DNA of 64,000 nt from Pseudomonadota bacterium (GTDB lineage: Bacteria > Desulfobacterota > Desulfobacteria > Desulfobacterales > RPRI01). The DNA lies in the NCBI GenBank assembly GCA_043825875.1, contig JBDRRF010000079.1:224353-288352 (forward strand). The letters are read 5' to 3'. The translations under genes and the position numbers were made by a program. The notes under the pieces are model-generated. The model did not search any database, had not been told where the DNA came from, and was given only the letters and a program-made list of their open reading frames with translations. This document shows positions 1-14,671 of the stretch, piece after piece. Every line of letters begins with the position of its first letter. The stretch's first letter is position 1.

Positions 1-584
1 TTTTTATTCTTACCGGCTATATATATATCACCATACCCAATGGCATAACCATTATCATTTATACTTAGGCCATGTGAATAATGATCCAAATTTAAGCTTT
101 GACCCATTTCTAAAATCCCGGTAGTTTCTGAATAATATTGCGCAGAAAGATTAAAATCTGATATGCCAGTCCCAACTACTTCATTAATATTATTTATTGA
201 ATTTCCGTCCATTCCGATATATTGAATCAAATTATCCCGGTAGTTCCAAATATATCCATCATCACCGTTGCTTGGGGCTAGCATTCCACAACTTAATCCA
301 TTATCATTGAGATCACATAAATATCCATTCTCAATTGGAAGTTCATATATAATGTCCAAATTCATATCCCATACATAAGCAACAGTATTTAAGAGGCTGC
401 TTGGTCCAATATCATAACAAAAGCCAACAACCTCCCCTGAGTTATTTATGTTTCCCAAAACAGAATATTGTTGCCCATTAAATGAATCTTTTAATGTTAT
501 TTCATACTCAGTTGCTTGTCCAAAATTTTGTAATCCCAAAAATACCACTAACGCTAAAAGTATGCCTTTAATTTGAGTCTTCAT
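1..584 (-). CDS. Secreted protein with HAF-like extracellular repeats, running off the window edge
   Basis: Not in the ORF track. Hand translation from ATG at 584 (GGGAGG RBS at 591-596) gives MKTQIKGILLALVVFLGLQNFGQATEY (signal peptide), then repeats such as INNSGEVVG, LNDNGLSCG, INNINEVVG, INDNGYAIG. Open to position 1. Confidence 0.7.
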   Translation of the reverse strand, partial: MKTQIKGILLALVVFLGLQNFGQATEYEITLKDSFNGQQYSVLGNINNSGEVVGFCYDIGPSSLLNTVAYVWDMNLDIIYELPIENGYLCDLNDNGLSCGMLAPSNGDDGYIWNYRDNLIQYIGMDGNSINNINEVVGTGISDFNLSAQYYSETTGILEMGQSLNLDHYSHGLSINDNGYAIGYGDIYIAGKNK

Positions 585-685
585 TTTAAACCTCCCGACA
601 GTTTCAATGTTATTATTAAGAGAATAGATCCTTTCCGTTATTTATTGTCTATCCACTAATTCAAAAATCAGGATATGCTTATTCA

Positions 686-1060
686 TTATTTAGTTTTTGA
701 TCTAATCTCTTGCTTGGCTACGTCCTTAGAACCATAAGCCTTTAAGTAAACCTCTTCGTATTTTACACTCCACCATAACAGCTCGATAAATATATTGTTC
801 CTCCACCGCCCTTTGCCATCCATGCTGATTCGTATCTTGTTTGCTTTAAGAATTCCGGTAAATGCTTCCGAAGTAAATTGACTGCCCTGATCGGCATTGA
901 AAATATCAGGCTTCCCAAAACGTATTATTGCCTCTTCAAGCGCCTCTATACAAAATAAATTATCCATCGTGGTAGACACACGCCAGGATAAAAAGAAAAT
1001 ATTAGGGTCGCATCTTAAATGTTTATTTTTTTTAATTCTATTGGCACAACCTTTTAGCAT
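686..1060 (-). pseudogene. IS3-family transposase OrfB (rve integrase core) fragment
   Basis: SWRVSTTMD...FGKPDIFNADQGSQFTS...ISMDGKGRWRNNIFIE..W.SVKYEEVYL is typical of IS3 OrfB. The N-terminus and OrfA are missing and the C-terminus is truncated. Confidence 0.85.
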
Positions 1061-1236
1061 GCGGTCACTCTGTATCTTATTTGCAAATTAAGTTTACTAG
1101 TTTAATACGCACCTAATACTACCCCTTATTACGCTTCTTTCTTTTTTAATTTCCTTTATAGTAATATGCTAAGAAAGACATCTGATAAAAACTATATAAC
1201 TAAAGAACACCCCCGATATCCCCCTGGTTAGGCACT

Positions 1237-1758
1237 TTAATGCAACTGCATCAATAGCTTATTGAGAAGCTTAGTTTCGTACCTATTAAAATAATTTTTA
1301 AGTTTGAAGCTCATTCTTTCTTTATAATTTTTTTGCATATCTAAAGCTTTAATCATATTCTCTGGGTTTTTTGAACGCAAAAGTTTCTGCAATTCCTCAT
1401 CTCTTTGAATAATGGCATGGGATGATATTGTTATCTGGCGTTCTGCGCAAAATTCGGCAAGCTCAACGAAATTATTAAATTTATTGACTACCGTAGTATC
1501 CTCTCTCCTGTCGCTTGAATATGAATATATTCGATAACCATCTTCATCAAGAACAATATGTGAAGCATCACTTCTTTCTGCTAATGGTTCATATTTCTTA
1601 CCTATAAAAATTGGGTAGTATCTTGTCTTGAACATCAACTCGCCTATATTATGAATACCAGCTTTAAGCTTTTCTTTCTTGGGGGCAGGGAGCCCGAGAC
1701 TTCTTATCGAGCCGTTTAAAATAAGCCTACAAATACTTTCAATTATTATTTTCTTCAT
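1237..1758 (-). CDS. Hypothetical gene-cassette protein (weak resemblance to Imm63-like immunity proteins)
   Basis: 173-aa ORF starting just after the attC R' site and ending 3 nt before an R''-like GCCTAAC. Family resemblance (HIVLDEDGYRIYSY) is weak. Confidence 0.55.
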   Translation of the reverse strand: MKKIIIESICRLILNGSIRSLGLPAPKKEKLKAGIHNIGELMFKTRYYPIFIGKKYEPLAERSDASHIVLDEDGYRIYSYSSDRREDTTVVNKFNNFVELAEFCAERQITISSHAIIQRDEELQKLLRSKNPENMIKALDMQKNYKERMSFKLKNYFNRYETKLLNKLLMQLH

Positions 1759-1773
1759 GATATTAATTCCGTG

Positions 1774-1903
1774 GCCTAACGCTCCAAATCACCGAGTGCA
1801 AATGGCTTTCACCAAATTATGCAAAAGCCAAAAAGCGTCGATGAATAATGACTTGTTAAAAAGACCCACGGCCTTTTGCATCCGGTGCATTTGGCGGTTC
1901 GGG
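1774..1903 (-). mobile_element. Integron attC recombination site
   Basis: Minus strand: R'' CCCGAAC, 5 nt, L'' AATGCACC ... L' GGTGATT, 6 nt, R' GTTAGGC. L'' carries one extra unpaired base and the arms keep pairing (GATGCAAAAGGC / GCCATTTGCA). Length 130 bp; overlaps the 3' end of the upstream gene. Confidence 0.85.
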
Positions 1904-2431
1904 CTGAAAGTTCATTCTGTTTAAAAACCCATCTTCATATTTAACCTGCGTTAAGAACCAACCACGATGCAATAATTCTTTCTTTTTCAATGCGTTGATA
2001 AACCCATGTCCAATAATTACAATTCTTTCATTTTCTAAAAGCTTTAACTCGATTGTTTCAACTATTCTCTTTACCCTCTGCCTGACCTCTTTAAAAGATT
2101 CACATTTTGTTTTAAGCCCTAATAACCAAAGTGACCTCGAAATGAATAACCATAACTTTGCCTTAAGCCGCACTGGAGGAAATACTATCAATGGGATTTC
2201 TGCTTCACGGAATATTGAATCCTCAATGATCTTTTTGCCTATGAGCCTTCCAGTTTCAATACTTCTCATAAGATCACTTGTATATACGATCTCTTCCTTA
2301 TCTCTTTCGATTTCATCAATGCAAATTCCTGCCGCACTTTACCTTTGTAACCAGAGCGGAAAATCGCCCCCAGAAATTATTTCACTATCAGAGACTGTTG
2401 GTTTTGCATGACGATAAATAATTATTTCCAT
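1856..2431 (-). pseudogene. Histidine phosphatase (phosphoglycerate mutase-like) family cassette gene interrupted by an in-frame TAA
   Basis: ATG at 2431 gives MEIIIYRHAKP (RH motif), TAA at codon 31 (2339-2341), then continues in frame to VYTSDLMRSIET...VIIGHG of the listed 1856..2269 ORF. Confidence 0.8.
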
Positions 2432-2440
2432 TTTCCAAGA

Positions 2441-2535
2441 ACCGAACAGTTGAGATATATGGAAATTTTTTCCACCTATTGCCTATAATACAATGGAACA
2501 TTTTCCATCTATTGCGATATTAAGCATACAAACAT
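2441..2535 (-). other. attI-like site at the start of the cassette array, with upstream direct repeats
   Basis: GTTCGGT on minus (2441-2447) just before the first cassette ATG; complementary at 6/7 to that cassette's R''. Direct repeats TTTTCCA(C/T)CTATTGC at 2468 and 2501. Confidence 0.55.
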
Positions 2536-2881
2536 GGAAAACTTGGAATTAAATTTTTCATGTATGAGTTTCATTATTAAATAGTATGGAAATATAAAAA
2601 ACCGCGGATTGCAGCGCCGCAATATTGTTTTTATAAATTGTTGATCGTTTTATTTAGATTGAATCATACCAAGTTTCCAATAAACATATTATATAAAACT
2701 GGCTGAATCTTAATATTTTTGAGGAGTTAAAGCATACAAACATTATTCATCTTTATATGTCAATAATTATTTAAGTAATGACAAGTAACCAATTGTGCTT
2801 CACATTTTATAAACTTGTAATCCATGTCTATACTGGGCACTGGCTTTCGAAACTATACCATACTATAATTATTGATTCCTT

Positions 2882-2964
2882 TGTCATTACGAGAGAAGTG
2901 AGAAATGTTTTTTTTAATATGGTTGTAAGCTTTAAGATTTCTCGGCTATTGCCTTGAAATGACA
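2882..2964. repeat. Palindromic REP-like element with TGTCATT...AATGACA ends
   Basis: TGTCATTACGAG..GAGAAAT ... ATTTCTC..TTGAAATGACA nested inverted repeats, intergenic. Confidence 0.6.
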
Positions 2965-3013
2965 TTACTACACAGTCTCTTTTCTCCGGTGCGAAGATAA
3001 ATGAGATAATATT

Positions 3014-3217
3014 TCAAACTTTTTTTTCATTTACCAATCGCGCAAAGTGTTCAAAAGATCTGTCATATGTTTTTTCCGCATCAGCGGAAAAACAGCATCC
3101 GGGCAGTTGTCTGCTTTTCAGATGATATTTCAAGCATTCGCAGCAGTAGCCTTTTTGTTTACAAGGTTCATAACTACAGTTACAAGTTGTGAGATTCTTT
3201 TCGACTTTGCATTCCAT
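3014..3217 (-). CDS. Small Cys-rich protein (DUF6485-like)
   Basis: [19 protein letters not shown]...LPGCCF...YDRS pattern; AGGAG RBS. Confidence 0.75.
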
Positions 3218-3224
3218 AATACTA

Positions 3225-4043
3225 TCACTCCTTTTTTTGTTTTACAACTTCGTCTACCAGCCTTTTTACTTCTTTAAGATACATCTCCATCCCTACTGCA
3301 AAAATAGTATTATGATCGGCATCCGGTATTTTAAGAAATTTTTTGTTTGGTGAAGAGCTTGCATCAAAAAGAGCCTGGCCGTCAGTAAAGGGAATAATAT
3401 GATCATATTCAGCATGTATGATAAGTACCGGTTTAGCAAAGTTTCGCATATTATCTATATTATGAAGATCGTGTTTCTCATCAATTCCCAATCTGTGGAT
3501 ATCAACTCCTATAAGACTTAACAGCGGAAGGACATTGGCAAAGCCGCTTTCTATTATAAGACCATCTATATCATTTTGATAATGTCCGGCAAGTTCAAGA
3601 GCAGAAGCACTCCCAAGAGATCTTCCCATAACAAGTATCGGCCCGGAATAGTCTTTTTGCTTAAGCCACTGCTTTATATAATCAAATATCACATGACAGT
3701 CGCGCATCATGTTTGTAACTGTAGGAGTTCCTGCTGAGCGACCGTATCCCCTGTAGTCCACAGGAAGAAAGTTGAAACCTATTTTTGTATATACAGGGCC
3801 TAAGTCATCATAGTCAGATACAATTTCACCGTTTCCGTGAAAATAAAGGATCACGGGAGCAGACTTTTCCGCACTGTGCAGTTTCGCTCCAATAGATATG
3901 CCGTTTTCAACAGGAATAAAAATATCTTCCACCTCTTTTGCAAATGTTAAAGAGTCTCCCCAATCCGGCCTTGGATGAAAAAGAAGTGCCAATATCTCCG
4001 GCTGGTCAAGTGAAGAATAATCGGCTCCGGAAAAATCGTTCAT
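3225..4043 (-). CDS. Alpha/beta hydrolase
   Basis: [19 protein letters not shown] nucleophile elbow, D and H (ADHN) catalytic residues. Confidence 0.9.
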
Positions 4044-8819: not shown

Positions 8820-9542
8820 TCAACTAAATGCATCCCTCACATTTCGCTCAATTGTCTGAAAAAACTCTGGGCTTAATGCATATGCTAGCACCTCAAATTT
8901 CCACATGGTTTCGTCAGAGTTTTCCTTAAGATTAATTTGCGGCTCTTTTTTAATACTTGCACCTGTTGAAAGCATAATAGCATTTTTTATCAGATTTTTT
9001 GCTTCTTCTATCGAAGCTTTCTTTTTTATTTCAATATCAAACCGGTGCAAAGTTGTCTTGTCCCGTGGCTGAATCTTATAATGGATAGCAGAACTTATTT
9101 TGCTATAGGGGATTTTAACAACAGCACCATCCTCTGTTGATAAAATCAAATTCAGATAACCGGCTTCAACAATTACACCCTCAATTTCATTTAACATGAT
9201 ATGCTGGCCCGGCTGATAATTATCGCCCAACTTGAGCACAAAACCTGCAATAAAGTCTTTTGCCATAAACCAGCCAAGCCAGATTACTATAACGGCAGTT
9301 ATGCTTATTACAGCCAAAAAATAATAATCACTGTCTTTTAATGTTATATGAAGACCCCAAAATCCAAAAACACTCCATATCAGTATTTCAGCAATCTGGA
9401 AAAATTGTTTTGTCCGGTTCTTTTGGATCTTTACTATAATTGTTTTGTTTATAATTTTTAATGCAAAGGAAAGTAATATCCCAAGCATAATAACTATCAG
9501 TAATGATAATCCCGAAAACTCAATATTTAACAACTCATTCAT
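8820..9542 (-). CDS. MscS-domain membrane protein
   Basis: Three TM helices, KDFIAG, VKIPYS. Probable start ATG at 9542 overlaps the TGA of the upstream gene (ATGA). Confidence 0.8.
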   Translation of the reverse strand: MNELLNIEFSGLSLLIVIMLGILLSFALKIINKTIIVKIQKNRTKQFFQIAEILIWSVFGFWGLHITLKDSDYYFLAVISITAVIVIWLGWFMAKDFIAGFVLKLGDNYQPGQHIMLNEIEGVIVEAGYLNLILSTEDGAVVKIPYSKISSAIHYKIQPRDKTTLHRFDIEIKKKASIEEAKNLIKNAIMLSTGASIKKEPQINLKENSDETMWKFEVLAYALSPEFFQTIERNVRDAFS

Positions 9543-12500
9543 AAGAGATCCATTTCTTCTAAACAATTAGTAATTAAAGGTTGAATATAAGGACTAATTT
9601 GCATGATCCCCGGACGAATTTCCTTTATAATCCCGCTTCTCTTAAGGGATTGAACCACGAGATCTGTTTTTTCTTCGTCACCGCCAAGAAGCTGTTTAAG
9701 TCGAATATCACTAAGATGTTTGTGCAGCATAAATTGCTGAAGAGTAATCAGCCAGTCCATCTTCATTTTTTTAAGAGCCTGATTGTTTGCAGCAATTGGA
9801 ATTCTGATATCTATGGTAAGCGGATTTACCTTCACAATATTACTGATCCAGTAATGTATGGCCTGACCGATATTGCCGTTTGAGATTCCAAAATATTTAT
9901 TAAATAACCCGGCAAGACGGAAATTCGAAATTAAATCTTCATTTAGCTTGCCCAGTTGAAATTTTAAACCTGTGGAACGATGTCTGAGCAGTATTGCCTC
10001 TTGCAGCTCTTCAGAATCAAAGGGTTGGCATTCTATAGCGCTGATAAAAGCATTTTCAATCGGTTTTAGCCTGTTGATAAATTTAAAACTGCGCGTTCCT
10101 GCATTTACAATAAAAAAGCATCTATCACTATATTTGTATATCAGATCAATAATTTCTTCTATTACGGCAAAGCCTTTATTGCTGCGCTGCCACCAAAGTT
10201 CCATATCATGAAATATAATCGTGCTGTTTTGTTCAAGATTATTGAACACCTTTTTATAATCCCCGTTTTGCTTCAGTATATCCGTTAAGCGATTTTTAAA
10301 TTCATTTGGATCTATACTTCCGCCATCAGGTGGAAATACATGAAAAATATTTTTACGATCGAAATACTTGTTTGTTATGGAACGGCATAAGGTAGATTTG
10401 CCGGAGTGGCGATCTCCTATAACAAGCAGTGCTCCATTGTATCCCTGACGATATGAATCGATAGCTTTTTTTGCACAATCCATTTCATATTTTCTATCAA
10501 TTATAAATTCTTTGCCGATTATCTGGTTGCCTAAAAATAATTGTTTGTAATAAAAAGGCAGTATACGGTTTATTTCATTATCCGGTGTCAGCAGTTTTAC
10601 CATTTCAAGAAGGTGGCCTGTTTCGGTCTGATAAGTTGCGGAAACTCTGCTTATTTTTTTTGCAAACAAAATCCCTTCGCTTTTTTGATAGATAAGCCTG
10701 ACCACAAGATTTTTGCTCTGTGTTTTCAACCATTCGGATATTTTTACTGCTTGTGTAAATATTTTACGGCCTTCTCTTGTGCGGATAGTTTGCTTTAATT
10801 CTCCGGCAGTTTTTGATATTAGATAAGGACTCATTTTTTCAAATGTTGCGCCAAGCAGGCGTTTAAATTCTGCCTGGAGATTTTGCTGAAGTTTTTCAAT
10901 ATTGTTATTTTCAGCGCTTATCCTGTCAAGGCCGCTTTTTACAATAACTGACAAATCGGGAACTTCCTTTTCATTGGAATCGGCATTGTTGGCATCAGAT
11001 AAAAGCGAGAGATTATGATTTGTAAATCTGACAACATCCTGAGCGATATCGTTTGTTTTTTTAAGACTTGTGGAAAGCTCGGATATATGCTGCCGTAGCG
11101 GATCAATAAGTTCCGTTTCGATCAGGAAACCGGCATAACGAAGTAAATTGATATTTAACATTAAAATATCACAGAACTGCTCCTGCTCAATTTTTTCACA
11201 TGATTCTTCCGTCATAAGTTCAATGGTATCAGGCAATTCTTCTTCCGCTGCCTGTATATCTTTAACCAGTTCATTAAATAATGAGTCCGGATTAATTATT
11301 CCCTGTAAAAAAACAGGCCAGCTTATATCCTCTTTTTCCTCTGAATTAATCGATTTCAAGTCAGTCTCTAATTTATCGAGTCTGCTTGAAAAATTATTTC
11401 CTATGCTTAATTGTATTCCATTGATGAATCGATCAAGAATAGTATTTATGCGGTTTTGAAAATTTTTAATGGTTAAATCTTCAATCAATGAATTCACGAT
11501 TAATCTTTGATGATTAAACCATGTATCGGGAATTTCCTGTAATTGTATATCAGATAACTGTTTTTTATTAAGTTGTTTATTTTTCTTTTTTATGATGCGG
11601 TTTACATTAGCACTTTCCAGATCAATAGACATCATCTGCATAATCTGGTAAAGGTTTTGTCGCAGCTCATCCGATGAGTTCTGGTAGTCTTTCTGACAAT
11701 TATCCAGAACCGATTGTAATTTCTCTTTTATTTTTATTATTTCCTGATCATATATTGTTTCATCTATACTATCTTTTTCAAGTTCCAGCCCAATAGCATT
11801 AAGACTGTCTGATACGAAAATAAATAATTTTTGCAAATCCGATATCAGGTTGTAGTTTTGCAACCCAAAATCCTGTAGATGCTTATAAACTACATCCTGC
11901 TCAATTTGTTTTATTAAGGTATTAGCAAATAAACGCATCCGGATTTTACGGCGGATTGCCATATCACCACTTTTTAACTTAACTTTTTCCCAAATTGAAG
12001 TCCTGTTTGCAATTTCATCTGTTTGGGCAGACTCAATAAATATGTTTAATTCGGATGGGCTATCGTTATGTATTTTCTGTAATTCCACAAGGAGCGCCTG
12101 AAGACCTGCTGACAAACTGTCTTTTTGTTCTAGCAGTGTAGTATCCTGAAAACTCTGAACAATCCGGTTTGAGTTAAAGAGATAGTTACTGAAAGCATGC
12201 GCCAAAGCGTTTTTGATAGCTTGCACTTCAAAATGGTTTTTATCGGGAAAAGCTTCTTTAAGCTGATTGATGTTTCTTTCAACCAGCTTTTCGATTTCTT
12301 TTAACAATAAAAGATTTTCTGCATGAATGATCTTTACTGAACCGTTTTGATACCTGGCAAATGCTTCTTCTGTTTTTGCATGAATATCAGCCATACTGTC
12401 TGCAAGCACTTTATGCTTAGGCAAAACCAGCGAGGGCGGAATATAATCGTAACCAATATAATTGTCTGGCATAATTCTGGTTTGTTTAATTGCATTCGCC

Positions 12501-14671
12501 CTTTCAAGCCCGGTATGAATAGATTTAAAAAAGGAGGATGCTTGAATCAGCAGGACTGTACCCAATGTTTTAAGGATGTTATCCGTATCTGATATGTACT
12601 GGGCAACATTTTCCTTTTCGACATCTGTTAATCCAAGTATTACAAGATCCGAATCCTGAGACTCTTTGGCAATAATTTCATTAACGGAACTCCGATCGAT
12701 ATTGTTGTTGATTATTTTTATACCGGCTTCAATTCTGTATTCTTCAATTACATTGTTTATGTTTCTATATATTATATCGTTTAATGAAGAATCTTCATTT
12801 ATAATTAAAATCCTGGCATTTGTGTCTTCCCATTCTTCGGTCATTTTCAAAAACTTTATCAATGTCAGCCCTAAAGACACCGAATTGCTGCCGCCGCCCC
12901 ACCAGAGATCTATTGTTTTATGGGAACCAAATCCCTTTTCAAAATGGTAGTCGAGCAGAAAAATATTATAATCAAGCTTTTTGAAACTTTTAATTACCTG
13001 GGCAAATTTTTCGGGCTGCTTGCTGGTTCGTGCCCATCCGAGCATAACCGAATTAGGTTCAATACCGGCAAAACCATATACTTTCGTTATGGTTTCCATT
13101 CCTTCATAAATATCGTTTACTTCCATGTGCCTTGTAAATATACCGGTAAATTCGGATTCTTTTTCATCTGATGCCTGCTGGACTTTAGGGGCAATATTTT
13201 CAGTTTTCTTGTTTTCTATTAAATTAAAATTGGAAATAATTCCTCTCTTATGAACAAGCCAGCGCCCAAATTCCAGCAAATGGGGGCGCGCTACCGTTCC
13301 ACCGCTGAAAAGTATTATATTGGGACGCCAGTTTCTCTGCTGTTTTACAGTACGATCAAGATGGTTGAGTCCGTATCTTAAAATAGATGACCAGACACCT
13401 TCCCAAGTATCACCTGAATCCAGTGTCAGTTCTTTTTTCTTAAGAAAAAGAAATATGGAACTCATAATAATAACCGCACCTATCAGAGCTATAAAATCCA
13501 GTTCAAGCATTAAGATAAAACATACTACTGCCCCGATAATGCTCACCCACCCAGGAATTTTAAAAGAAGGCATAAAATCTGTGCTGGCCCATTTTTCTAT
13601 GGCACAGCTTAAATTTAAAAAGCCGTATGTGGTGATAAAAAACATTGACACTACTCTTGCTATCAGATTCAACTCACCTATGAGAATGCCTGCTTCCGCT
13701 ATTATAAAAGACAGTATAAGAGCATTTCGCGGGTCATTTGTCTTACCGTAACCTTTGGCAAAAATACGAGGTGTAATTCCGTCTGATGATGTTGCCTGCA
13801 GAATACGGGGCGCTCCTAATATACTGCCTATAGCAGAAGATAATGTTGCTCCCCAAATGCCAGCTACAAGCAAAGGTGAATAAAATGATATTTCAAGTAA
13901 AATATTCGGATTGTTCACCAACTGGTCGGAATTAATCCGGAAAGAAAAAAATGCGGCAAGACCAATGTAAACTAACAATCCCAAGGCGATTGCGCTTATT
14001 GTTCCAATGGGAATGGATTTTTTTGGATCTTTAAGGTCTCCGGACATTGATACCCCGGCCTCAAAACCTGTTACAGCCGGGAAATAGATAGCAAACAGCA
14101 TGATAAGTGGAACAGAAGTTGTCACTGGATCAATAAGCGGTTTTACCGGTGCAAAATCGCCTTTTCCGAAAAGGATAGTAAGAAGGGACAAGACAATCGT
14201 AGTCATAATAATATATTGTGTTTTTATTGCCAGAGAAGTACTGATAATAACCAAAGTGCCTACAAGGATAATAGCTATAGTTCCGGTCAACCGGATTGTA
14301 TCTTTAGTAATCGGTAGCCCCCAAAAGCCCAAAAAACTTTCGGAAAAGCCTATTAAATATAAACTAATACTTAATGACATGCCAAAAAACAGAGCAATAC
14401 CAAGCGTTCCGCCAATAGATAAGCCCATACTGCGGGAAATTATATAGTAGGTTCCGCCCGCCTTTACTTTTTTATCGGTTGCTATGGATGAAACACTAAG
14501 ACCTGTGCAAACTGAAACAATATGTGCCACCAATATAATACCAAGTGTAAGAACAAATCCGGCCTGTCCTACTATCCAGGGCAGGCGCATATACATAATA
14601 ACGCCAAGAATAGTTAAAATTGAAGGCGTAAATACTCCGCCGAAAGTTCCGAGTTTTTTATCCTGTGCCAT
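9539..14671 (-). CDS. SLC12/cation-chloride cotransporter-like permease fused to a long helical region and a C-terminal P-loop ATPase
   Basis: LGTFGGVFTPSILTILGVIMYMR, GGTYYIISRS, FPAVTG, MSGDLKDP, NWRPNI (SLC12 C-terminal domain); later GDRHSGKST (Walker A) and IIFHD (Walker B). Confidence 0.88.
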   Translation of the reverse strand: MAQDKKLGTFGGVFTPSILTILGVIMYMRLPWIVGQAGFVLTLGIILVAHIVSVCTGLSVSSIATDKKVKAGGTYYIISRSMGLSIGGTLGIALFFGMSLSISLYLIGFSESFLGFWGLPITKDTIRLTGTIAIILVGTLVIISTSLAIKTQYIIMTTIVLSLLTILFGKGDFAPVKPLIDPVTTSVPLIMLFAIYFPAVTGFEAGVSMSGDLKDPKKSIPIGTISAIALGLLVYIGLAAFFSFRINSDQLVNNPNILLEISFYSPLLVAGIWGATLSSAIGSILGAPRILQATSSDGITPRIFAKGYGKTNDPRNALILSFIIAEAGILIGELNLIARVVSMFFITTYGFLNLSCAIEKWASTDFMPSFKIPGWVSIIGAVVCFILMLELDFIALIGAVIIMSSIFLFLKKKELTLDSGDTWEGVWSSILRYGLNHLDRTVKQQRNWRPNIILFSGGTVARPHLLEFGRWLVHKRGIISNFNLIENKKTENIAPKVQQASDEKESEFTGIFTRHMEVNDIYEGMETITKVYGFAGIEPNSVMLGWARTSKQPEKFAQVIKSFKKLDYNIFLLDYHFEKGFGSHKTIDLWWGGGSNSVSLGLTLIKFLKMTEEWEDTNARILIINEDSSLNDIIYRNINNVIEEYRIEAGIKIINNNIDRSSVNEIIAKESQDSDLVILGLTDVEKENVAQYISDTDNILKTLGTVLLIQASSFFKSIHTGLERANAIKQTRIMPDNYIGYDYIPPSLVLPKHKVLADSMADIHAKTEEAFARYQNGSVKIIHAENLLLLKEIEKLVERNINQLKEAFPDKNHFEVQAIKNALAHAFSNYLFNSNRIVQSFQDTTLLEQKDSLSAGLQALLVELQKIHNDSPSELNIFIESAQTDEIANRTSIWEKVKLKSGDMAIRRKIRMRLFANTLIKQIEQDVVYKHLQDFGLQNYNLISDLQKLFIFVSDSLNAIGLELEKDSIDETIYDQEIIKIKEKLQSVLDNCQKDYQNSSDELRQNLYQIMQMMSIDLESANVNRIIKKKNKQLNKKQLSDIQLQEIPDTWFNHQRLIVNSLIEDLTIKNFQNRINTILDRFINGIQLSIGNNFSSRLDKLETDLKSINSEEKEDISWPVFLQGIINPDSLFNELVKDIQAAEEELPDTIELMTEESCEKIEQEQFCDILMLNINLLRYAGFLIETELIDPLRQHISELSTSLKKTNDIAQDVVRFTNHNLSLLSDANNADSNEKEVPDLSVIVKSGLDRISAENNNIEKLQQNLQAEFKRLLGATFEKMSPYLISKTAGELKQTIRTREGRKIFTQAVKISEWLKTQSKNLVVRLIYQKSEGILFAKKISRVSATYQTETGHLLEMVKLLTPDNEINRILPFYYKQLFLGNQIIGKEFIIDRKYEMDCAKKAIDSYRQGYNGALLVIGDRHSGKSTLCRSITNKYFDRKNIFHVFPPDGGSIDPNEFKNRLTDILKQNGDYKKVFNNLEQNSTIIFHDMELWWQRSNKGFAVIEEIIDLIYKYSDRCFFIVNAGTRSFKFINRLKPIENAFISAIECQPFDSEELQEAILLRHRSTGLKFQLGKLNEDLISNFRLAGLFNKYFGISNGNIGQAIHYWISNIVKVNPLTIDIRIPIAANNQALKKMKMDWLITLQQFMLHKHLSDIRLKQLLGGDEEKTDLVVQSLKRSGIIKEIRPGIMQISPYIQPLITNCLEEMDLL

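Follow-up and report, generated by a model that had tools for sequence, protein, structure and literature searches.

Cassette arrays that lack an integrase gene have been assigned four origins by Cury et al. (2016, PMC4889954), one of which is the loss of intI, and truncated intI genes have been reported in Xanthomonas (10.1101/2025.06.18.660453). Arrays with a single attC, termed SALINs, have been described by Loot et al. (10.1101/2022.09.11.507474). The locus described here lies in a 64,000-nucleotide stretch of DNA (the window, in whose coordinates all unprefixed positions are given) and resembles a SALIN in having one attC, no intI nearby, and intI genes elsewhere in the genome. The difference is that it keeps an attI, whereas a SALIN is defined in that work as having no other att site nearby; a CALIN contains at least two attC sites, as opposed to the one found here. 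Strictly, the locus is thus neither a CALIN nor a SALIN, yet it works like the remnants placed in those classes. Since both attI and the start codon of intI are retained, the locus did not originate from the insertion of cassettes at a genomic attG site, and it provides a clear case of a single-attC array derived from a full integron by intI deletion. IntegronFinder is blind to most attI sites and would therefore likely file the locus as a SALIN.

The locus also resembles the sedentary integron platforms found in four related genomes (G015, G018, G027, and G111; here and below, G000 is the source genome, C-numbers are its contigs, other G-numbers are related genomes, and L-numbers are fetched loci). 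It shares with them the attI family, the spacing between the intI start and the crossover, and the orientation of the cassettes, but intI is deleted after codon 3 and followed by a repeated segment, the last attC is missing, and the assembly contains no cognate integrase. Replacement of a cassette attC is also a feature of the Delta-attI-type cassettes found in integrons of classes 1 and 2 (Gonzales Machuca et al. 2026, PMC12901181). In those cassettes, part of an attI that terminates in GTTRRRY stands in for the attC, whereas the substitute in our locus is a repeat other than attI, with no GTT except R″ read on the opposite strand. We read the locus, with reasonable confidence, as a two-cassette integron remnant in which intI is gone after three codons and the second attC was likely cut by what is likely a Y1 transposon terminus, and which is probably frozen.

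The two cassettes and their attC

Read on the minus strand, the array runs from ATATC-TCAACT-G|TT (2458–2445) through gene 1 (2431–1856), an attC (1903–1774), and gene 2 (1758–1237) to GCCTAAC (1233→1227), which begins 3 nt past the gene 2 stop. The attC displays the features by which such sites are recognized, namely R″ and R′ boxes with AAC/GTT (CCCGAAC and GTTAGGC), spacers of 5–6 nt, and an L″/L′ pair with one extra, extrahelical G. A heuristic scan recovered 25 sites from the genome, including this one, as opposed to zero from 1.13 Mb of shuffled DNA. A covariance model, built by us rather than taken from IntegronFinder and trained on 23 other attC sites (19 from this genome and 4 from relatives) chosen by our own heuristic, gave a single match in the 64 kb at exactly 1774–1903 on the minus strand (27.4 bits, E 0.00046). 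The folding energy of the site is unremarkable (z −0.7 and −1.6) and would by itself be weak evidence. The original prediction of an integrase-less two-cassette array with one canonical attC at this position is therefore borne out, as both cassettes and the attC are confirmed.

Cassette 1 starts at G2447 (GTTCGGT), which is complementary at six of seven positions to its R″ box CCCGAAC. Its gene (1856–2431, minus strand) is histidine-phosphatase-like (PF00300, E 9e-7), carries an in-frame stop at codon 31 (2341–2339) that the original prediction had overlooked, and has a reading frame that ends inside the attC. An intact homologue with 69% identity lies at C24:24032, with an identical GTTCGGT start behind an attC-like palindrome. 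The 173-aa product of the cassette 2 gene (1237–1758, minus strand) belongs to no family matched in Pfam or NCBIfam, had no usable Atlas match, and was found neither in 300 other genomes of the order nor in a collection of genome contigs. The sole homologue found (83%) is part of an attC array of metagenomic origin, where it is likewise bounded by GTTAGGC at its start and GCCTAAC at its end. Judging by these boundaries, both genes occur as cassettes elsewhere, and the cassette logic that had been claimed for the two ends of the array holds.

What follows cassette 2 is its R″ box plus 2 nt (1225–1233, minus strand), the sole remainder of a second attC. The lack of an attC hairpin at this distal site, which had been noted previously, was confirmed by folding (z +0.3 and +0.5) and by the lack of a covariance-model match; no allele with an intact second attC was found, and the metagenomic homologue of gene 2 is likewise without a recognizable attC beyond its R″. 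The locus consists of an attI with intI deleted, cassette 1 with a broken gene, an attC, and cassette 2, the second attC having likely been removed by a transposon end.

A different assignment of the attC would reach the same arrangement by another route: a cassette 2 circle carrying the present attC body could have recombined through its top strand (R″) into an already truncated cassette 1 end. Since R′ (GTTAGGC) and the distal R″ (GCCTAAC) are perfectly complementary, the attC body formally fits cassette 2 as well as cassette 1, and top-strand recombination does exist (PMC5027507). The same work places it orders of magnitude below the usual reaction, however, and for genome insertion it occurs at background level (10.1101/2022.09.11.507474). 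The bases that follow the R″ of the gene 2 homologue also match the distal spacer of the window at 3/5 positions as opposed to 0/5 for the central attC spacer, though this is a weak point. We judge the top-strand route very improbable and retain the attC as that of cassette 1.

The attI site and the missing integrase gene

The right end of the array is formed by an attI region (2445–2590, minus strand) with its crossover G|TT at 2447 and direct repeats spaced by 33 bp, as delineated by profile match and alignment. An HMM constructed from only three intI-adjacent sites of relatives matched the window from 2592 to 2446 with an E value of 1e-15, and a broad attI profile returned the right site at E 3.8e-24. 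The last 100–150 bp were matched in 20/61 and 24/151 of the related genomes searched, source genome included. The classified sites are fetched top loci rather than all matches, with two duplicates, matches of E >1e-5, and rows short of the model end dropped. Among the resulting 34 sites of relatives, 7 are divergent from an intact intI, 13 lie beside a partial intI (in L027, partial solely through the contig end), and 14 are without a tblastn-detectable intI, although several of these still keep the first intI codons. No intact intI therefore adjoins 27 of the 34 sampled sites of this family. Three of the seven intact neighboring integrase genes were tested, and all three scored over the TIGR02249 cutoff.

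Most sites of the family end in GTT (32/35), and 29 of these 32 are followed downstream by an R″ match with at most one mismatch, 17 of them exact, as a raw count with no chance baseline. Because homologues adjoin intact intI in relatives and the intI start codon is kept at an equivalent distance, the right site is, as judged from sequence, a true attI, whose position beside the 5′ end of an intI holds by homology rather than in place. The family provides a usable marker, given its presence in 20/61 and 24/151 related genomes, mostly without an intact adjoining intI.

On several contigs of relatives (L113 and L115 of G024 and L114 of G015), multiple attI copies occur in direct orientation with different genes after each, and one copy on L114 has an intI stub in front of it. 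A few homologues (L033/L114:6799, L124:1660, and L099) end in GAT instead of GTT, and two of them continue with the same short sequence. Near the GAT-ending homologue on L114 lies an ORF that we take to be reverse-transcriptase-like; these homologues possibly mark the end of a group II intron at the attI crossover.

Adjacent to the attI is what remains of the integrase gene, the codons ATG GAA ATA (2586–2597 with the stop, plus strand), encoding Met-Glu-Ile followed by a stop and foreign DNA. The ATG lies 141 nt from the crossover; in the intact relatives this distance is 139–140 nt in 5/7 and 156 nt in one, the start of the last not having been located. In place of intI stands a repeated intergenic segment of approximately 200 bp (2598–2800, minus strand). 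The same segment is fused to attI at C53, at C103, and in the relative G011, and it occurs without attI elsewhere. The C53 and C103 copies have lost approximately 85 bp of the attI region, and behind the C103 copy is a cassette whose R″ match is exact and whose end resembles an attC. The presence of the same fusion in three copies of this genome and in G011 suggests that intI was lost once and that the platform was copied afterwards.

Two candidate roles for the segment found no support. As a Pc promoter, it fared poorly in a sigma-70 scan (7 sites vs 9.4 expected, with none at its TTGACA), and as an RNA element, it drew no relevant match in an Rfam search across 600–3100, the only match being at chance level. 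The breakpoints of intI in the family were also inspected by eye, given that spread of solo attI sites as circles, by recombination of an attC with a secondary GTT inside the intI 5′ end, predicts AAC at the break. Only a few breaks have AAC at or close to them, a number not above that expected of AT-rich DNA, and for many the position of the break could not be fixed.

As originally predicted, the window contains no intI; its only tblastn match is a Xer-like gene at 24.4–25.0 kb. Elsewhere in the genome, four genes pass TIGR02249, the nearest located on the same contig, approximately 159 kb away, with an array of its own, and the window locus is not a complete integron. The four resident IntIs are 40–53% identical to the seven IntIs that adjoin this attI family, and the attI is upstream of none of their genes (0/4). 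The assembly thus holds no integrase of the cognate type, although a cognate intI could be unassembled, given that the genome is in 118 contigs. According to PMC2095811, the specificity of IntIs for their own attI is strict, while attC sites are shared. The attC could thus serve as a substrate for the four resident integrases, whereas this attI probably would not. Two of the four are long, with N-terminal extensions (C107:334–1647 and C79:66176–67696; 437 and 506 aa).

The distal end and its dispersed repeat

The original prediction placed the array between two inverted, inward-facing attI-like sites sharing ATATC-N6-GTT. The letters are indeed present at both ends (1216–1229, plus strand; 2458–2445, minus strand), but only the right site proved to be an attI, while the left side gave no match to the attI profile at E ≤10 across 901–1300. 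Nor does the motif denote a special shared site. It occurs 371 times in the genome vs 274–291 times in three shuffles, and nine times in the window; pairs that face inward and lie within 3 kb number 26 across the genome, and the motif was found at 0/45 attC boundaries. The original prediction had named a lack of enrichment at cassette boundaries as grounds for its own refutation, and such a lack is what was observed. Within the attI family, ATATC-N6 precedes GTT in only 3/34 rows, the window included, and is thus not a consensus. Both outer sites are ends of longer repeated elements, which had been missed. At the left, the GTT is the complement of the cassette 2 R″ box and ATATC belongs to a dispersed repeat, so the left "site" is, on the sequence, a chance join.

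We accordingly give almost no credence to the array as an invertible or mobile unit bounded by two simple sites. Its appeal lies in the shared ATATC-N6-GTT, in the right site being a real attI, and in the copy of the left repeat at C110:15067, which also has GTT at a similar offset (3/15 copies have GTT within +4 to +8). In addition to the missing attI homology on the left and a frequent motif that shows no enrichment at cassette boundaries, the 25 longest of 92 pairs include no inverted repeat linking one end with the other, and the multiple attI copies on three contigs of relatives (L113, L114, and L115) are all direct. The claimed architecture is absent, and the locus is an ordinary decayed integron.

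The dispersed repeat (993–1224, minus strand) starts at 1224, 2 nt beyond the cassette 2 R″, and opens with a likely terminal inverted repeat of a Y1/TIRYT element (1224→1189), pointing away from the array. Fifteen copies with unrelated outer sequence are present in the genome, the window copy being 90% identical over 231 bp to that on C91. ATATC is found in 8/15 copies, and its continuation as N6-GTT in the window copy only (1/15). Over its first 36 bases, the repeat is similar to DNA located 69 nt ahead of a Y1 transposase gene (C79:72344), the two Y1 genes of this genome that were tested being PF01797 members, and a second, nested end at approximately 1125→1086 matches sequence flanking Y1 genes of G008 on their 5′ side.

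A search pattern constructed from the left repeat and the pre-Y1 sequence returned 35 matches in 22/401 genomes, and 30 loci were examined. A Y1 gene or fragment was present in 10/30, compared with approximately 1% by chance, and 20/30 had no Y1 nearby. The motif precedes Y1 starts by 66–70 nt in L135, L147, and L150, and it follows Y1 C-terminal matches in inverted orientation at 48–72 nt in L130, L140, and L151. A PWM scored the window repeat at 31.1 bits vs a shuffle maximum of 6.8, a value that is partly circular because the pattern was designed from the repeats of this genome. A 27-nt pattern of the left repeat had no match in the genome-contig collection.

G-rich motifs located 5′ and, inverted, 3′ of Y1 genes, together with dispersed solo copies, are likewise found in TIRtron/TIRYT elements (PMC3733652; TnpA-Y1 subclass 2.1, 10.1101/279083). 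The window copy differs in being a solo end without a transposase and in departing from the GGGGWSAS consensus given in these works for the putatively mobile elements. The consensus is missed by most copies, which have G at the seventh position, and the window copy is degenerate; the L146 copy of a relative fits. The flanking of Y1 genes by inverted repeats, which characterizes TIRYT elements, thus holds for the motif family but not for the window copy itself. Inverted motif pairs enclose only a fragment or a short spacer (L130 and L135), with no whole element in the 3-kb loci, and only 1/15 copies in this genome has a Y1 gene behind it, with another end nearer that gene. Although no complete element was found in which an intact Y1 gene has this exact repeat on either side, which counts against this part of the reading, the left repeat is likely a Y1 (TIRYT-type) transposon terminus, as judged from the motif and its neighbors.

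The copies of the repeat tend to sit behind genes: 10/15 in this genome lie within 60 nt of a gene 3′ end vs 4% at random. Likewise, 4/16 ends are positioned downstream of a same-strand attC at a distance of up to 2 kb vs 0.6% at random; since variable islands collect elements of both types, this is co-location rather than proof of targeting. Targeting of attC R″ boxes by the repeat was considered and rejected, with AAC within 6 nt outside the motif in 0/30 loci. That TIRYT-type ends and array ends are found together points to one way in which arrays may be trimmed.

Several further arrangements of these ends were observed. The same Y1-type end is found at window 1224 and, a little to the left of the window, at C79:223594 and C79:222339, all in direct orientation and 13–33 nt past the stops of unrelated genes. 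The integron array at C79:66182 ends at a Y1 element (C79:72344) that splits a cassette gene 170 nt beyond an attC. A solo attI copy (C103:640–858) is preceded by a G-rich end near-identical over approximately 25 bp to one before the Y1 gene of C102 (5500–5545), which hints that Y1-type ends may move attI modules.

Proposed history and genomic surroundings

In the history that we favor, an integron of the type intact in G015, G018, G027, and G111 would have taken up both cassettes in the normal manner, by recombination of the attC bottom strand with attI. The gene for the integrase, which now stops just after its start codon with the 200-bp segment in its place, would have been lost before the platform was copied. 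At the distal end, a TIRYT-type end is joined 2 nt past R″, and either its insertion or an adjacent deletion likely removed the second attC. With one attI and one attC left, excision of cassette 1 or acquisition of a new cassette at attI would need an attI-accepting integrase, and because the assembly contains none of this type, the array is probably frozen. A poor fit to a long-dead locus is that the three segment-attI copies of this genome are followed by different DNA.

The same anatomy would result if the array were a live landing pad, that is, if the segment-plus-attI module had spread over the chromosome in copies and still received cassettes from an integrase acting in trans. The three copies share the segment that replaces intI while their downstream DNA is unrelated (C53 offers only 197 bp for this comparison), the C103 copy is followed by the cassette noted above, with its exact R″ match and attC-like terminus, four intI genes are present in the genome, and 27/34 sampled sites of relatives are without an intact adjoining intI. 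In addition, L035 and L039 share a 1.2-kb upstream flank with an intI remnant, and their first cassettes differ. However, differing first cassettes can also be explained by loading before the genome lost its cognate intI, none of the resident IntIs is of the cognate type while those characterized in PMC2095811 are attI-specific, the cassette 1 gene is broken, and the C53 and C103 copies are short of approximately 85 bp of the attI region. Continued loading in trans seems unlikely to us, and the frozen remnant remains our preferred reading.

Extended to the lineage, the idea would be that its integrons routinely shed intI and persist as multi-copy solo attI pads, spread over the chromosome by copying and reloaded in trans by non-cognate integrases, with TIRYT ends possibly helping. 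Although we consider this doubtful, it would, if true, imply a hidden attI origin for many "SALINs" and break the rule that one attI serves only its own integrase. The attI family as a marker makes the loading of solo attI sites by resident non-cognate integrases testable. No description of solo multi-copy attI sites was found among the papers listed in the literature search, a search that left out most subscription papers and so does not establish absence from print.

The closest relative, G008, has no island at the equivalent place. It is 94% identical to the source genome up to window position 3007, beyond which it carries an unrelated gene, and on a different contig synteny returns approximately 2.2 kb to the left of where the window starts. 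The array therefore sits in a patchwork island of approximately 5 kb at a breakpoint. This empty-site comparison is informative in G008 only, since synteny in G011 and G013 comprises one gene. The single DNA run, from which this genome may itself derive and which is thus not independent, gave contigs identical across 1176–3300 that contain no joint from one GTT to the other; two joints are listed for them, both with short sides and positioned in repeats.

Beside the left repeat lies a fragment of an IS3-family transposase (686–990, minus strand; PF00665; NF033516 at E 2.9e-21, below the cutoff). A gene for a secreted-looking protein with short internal repeats (window 1–584; 441 aa including the part left of the window) sits between this fragment and a Y1-type end, and the part tested had no Pfam match. 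Between the attI module and a DUF6485 gene, a degenerate palindromic repeat (2870–2968) has copies on C66 and C46 with approximately 80% identity. Farther along, the window encodes a 1710-aa ORF (9539–14671) with a transporter-like N-terminus and a long tail.
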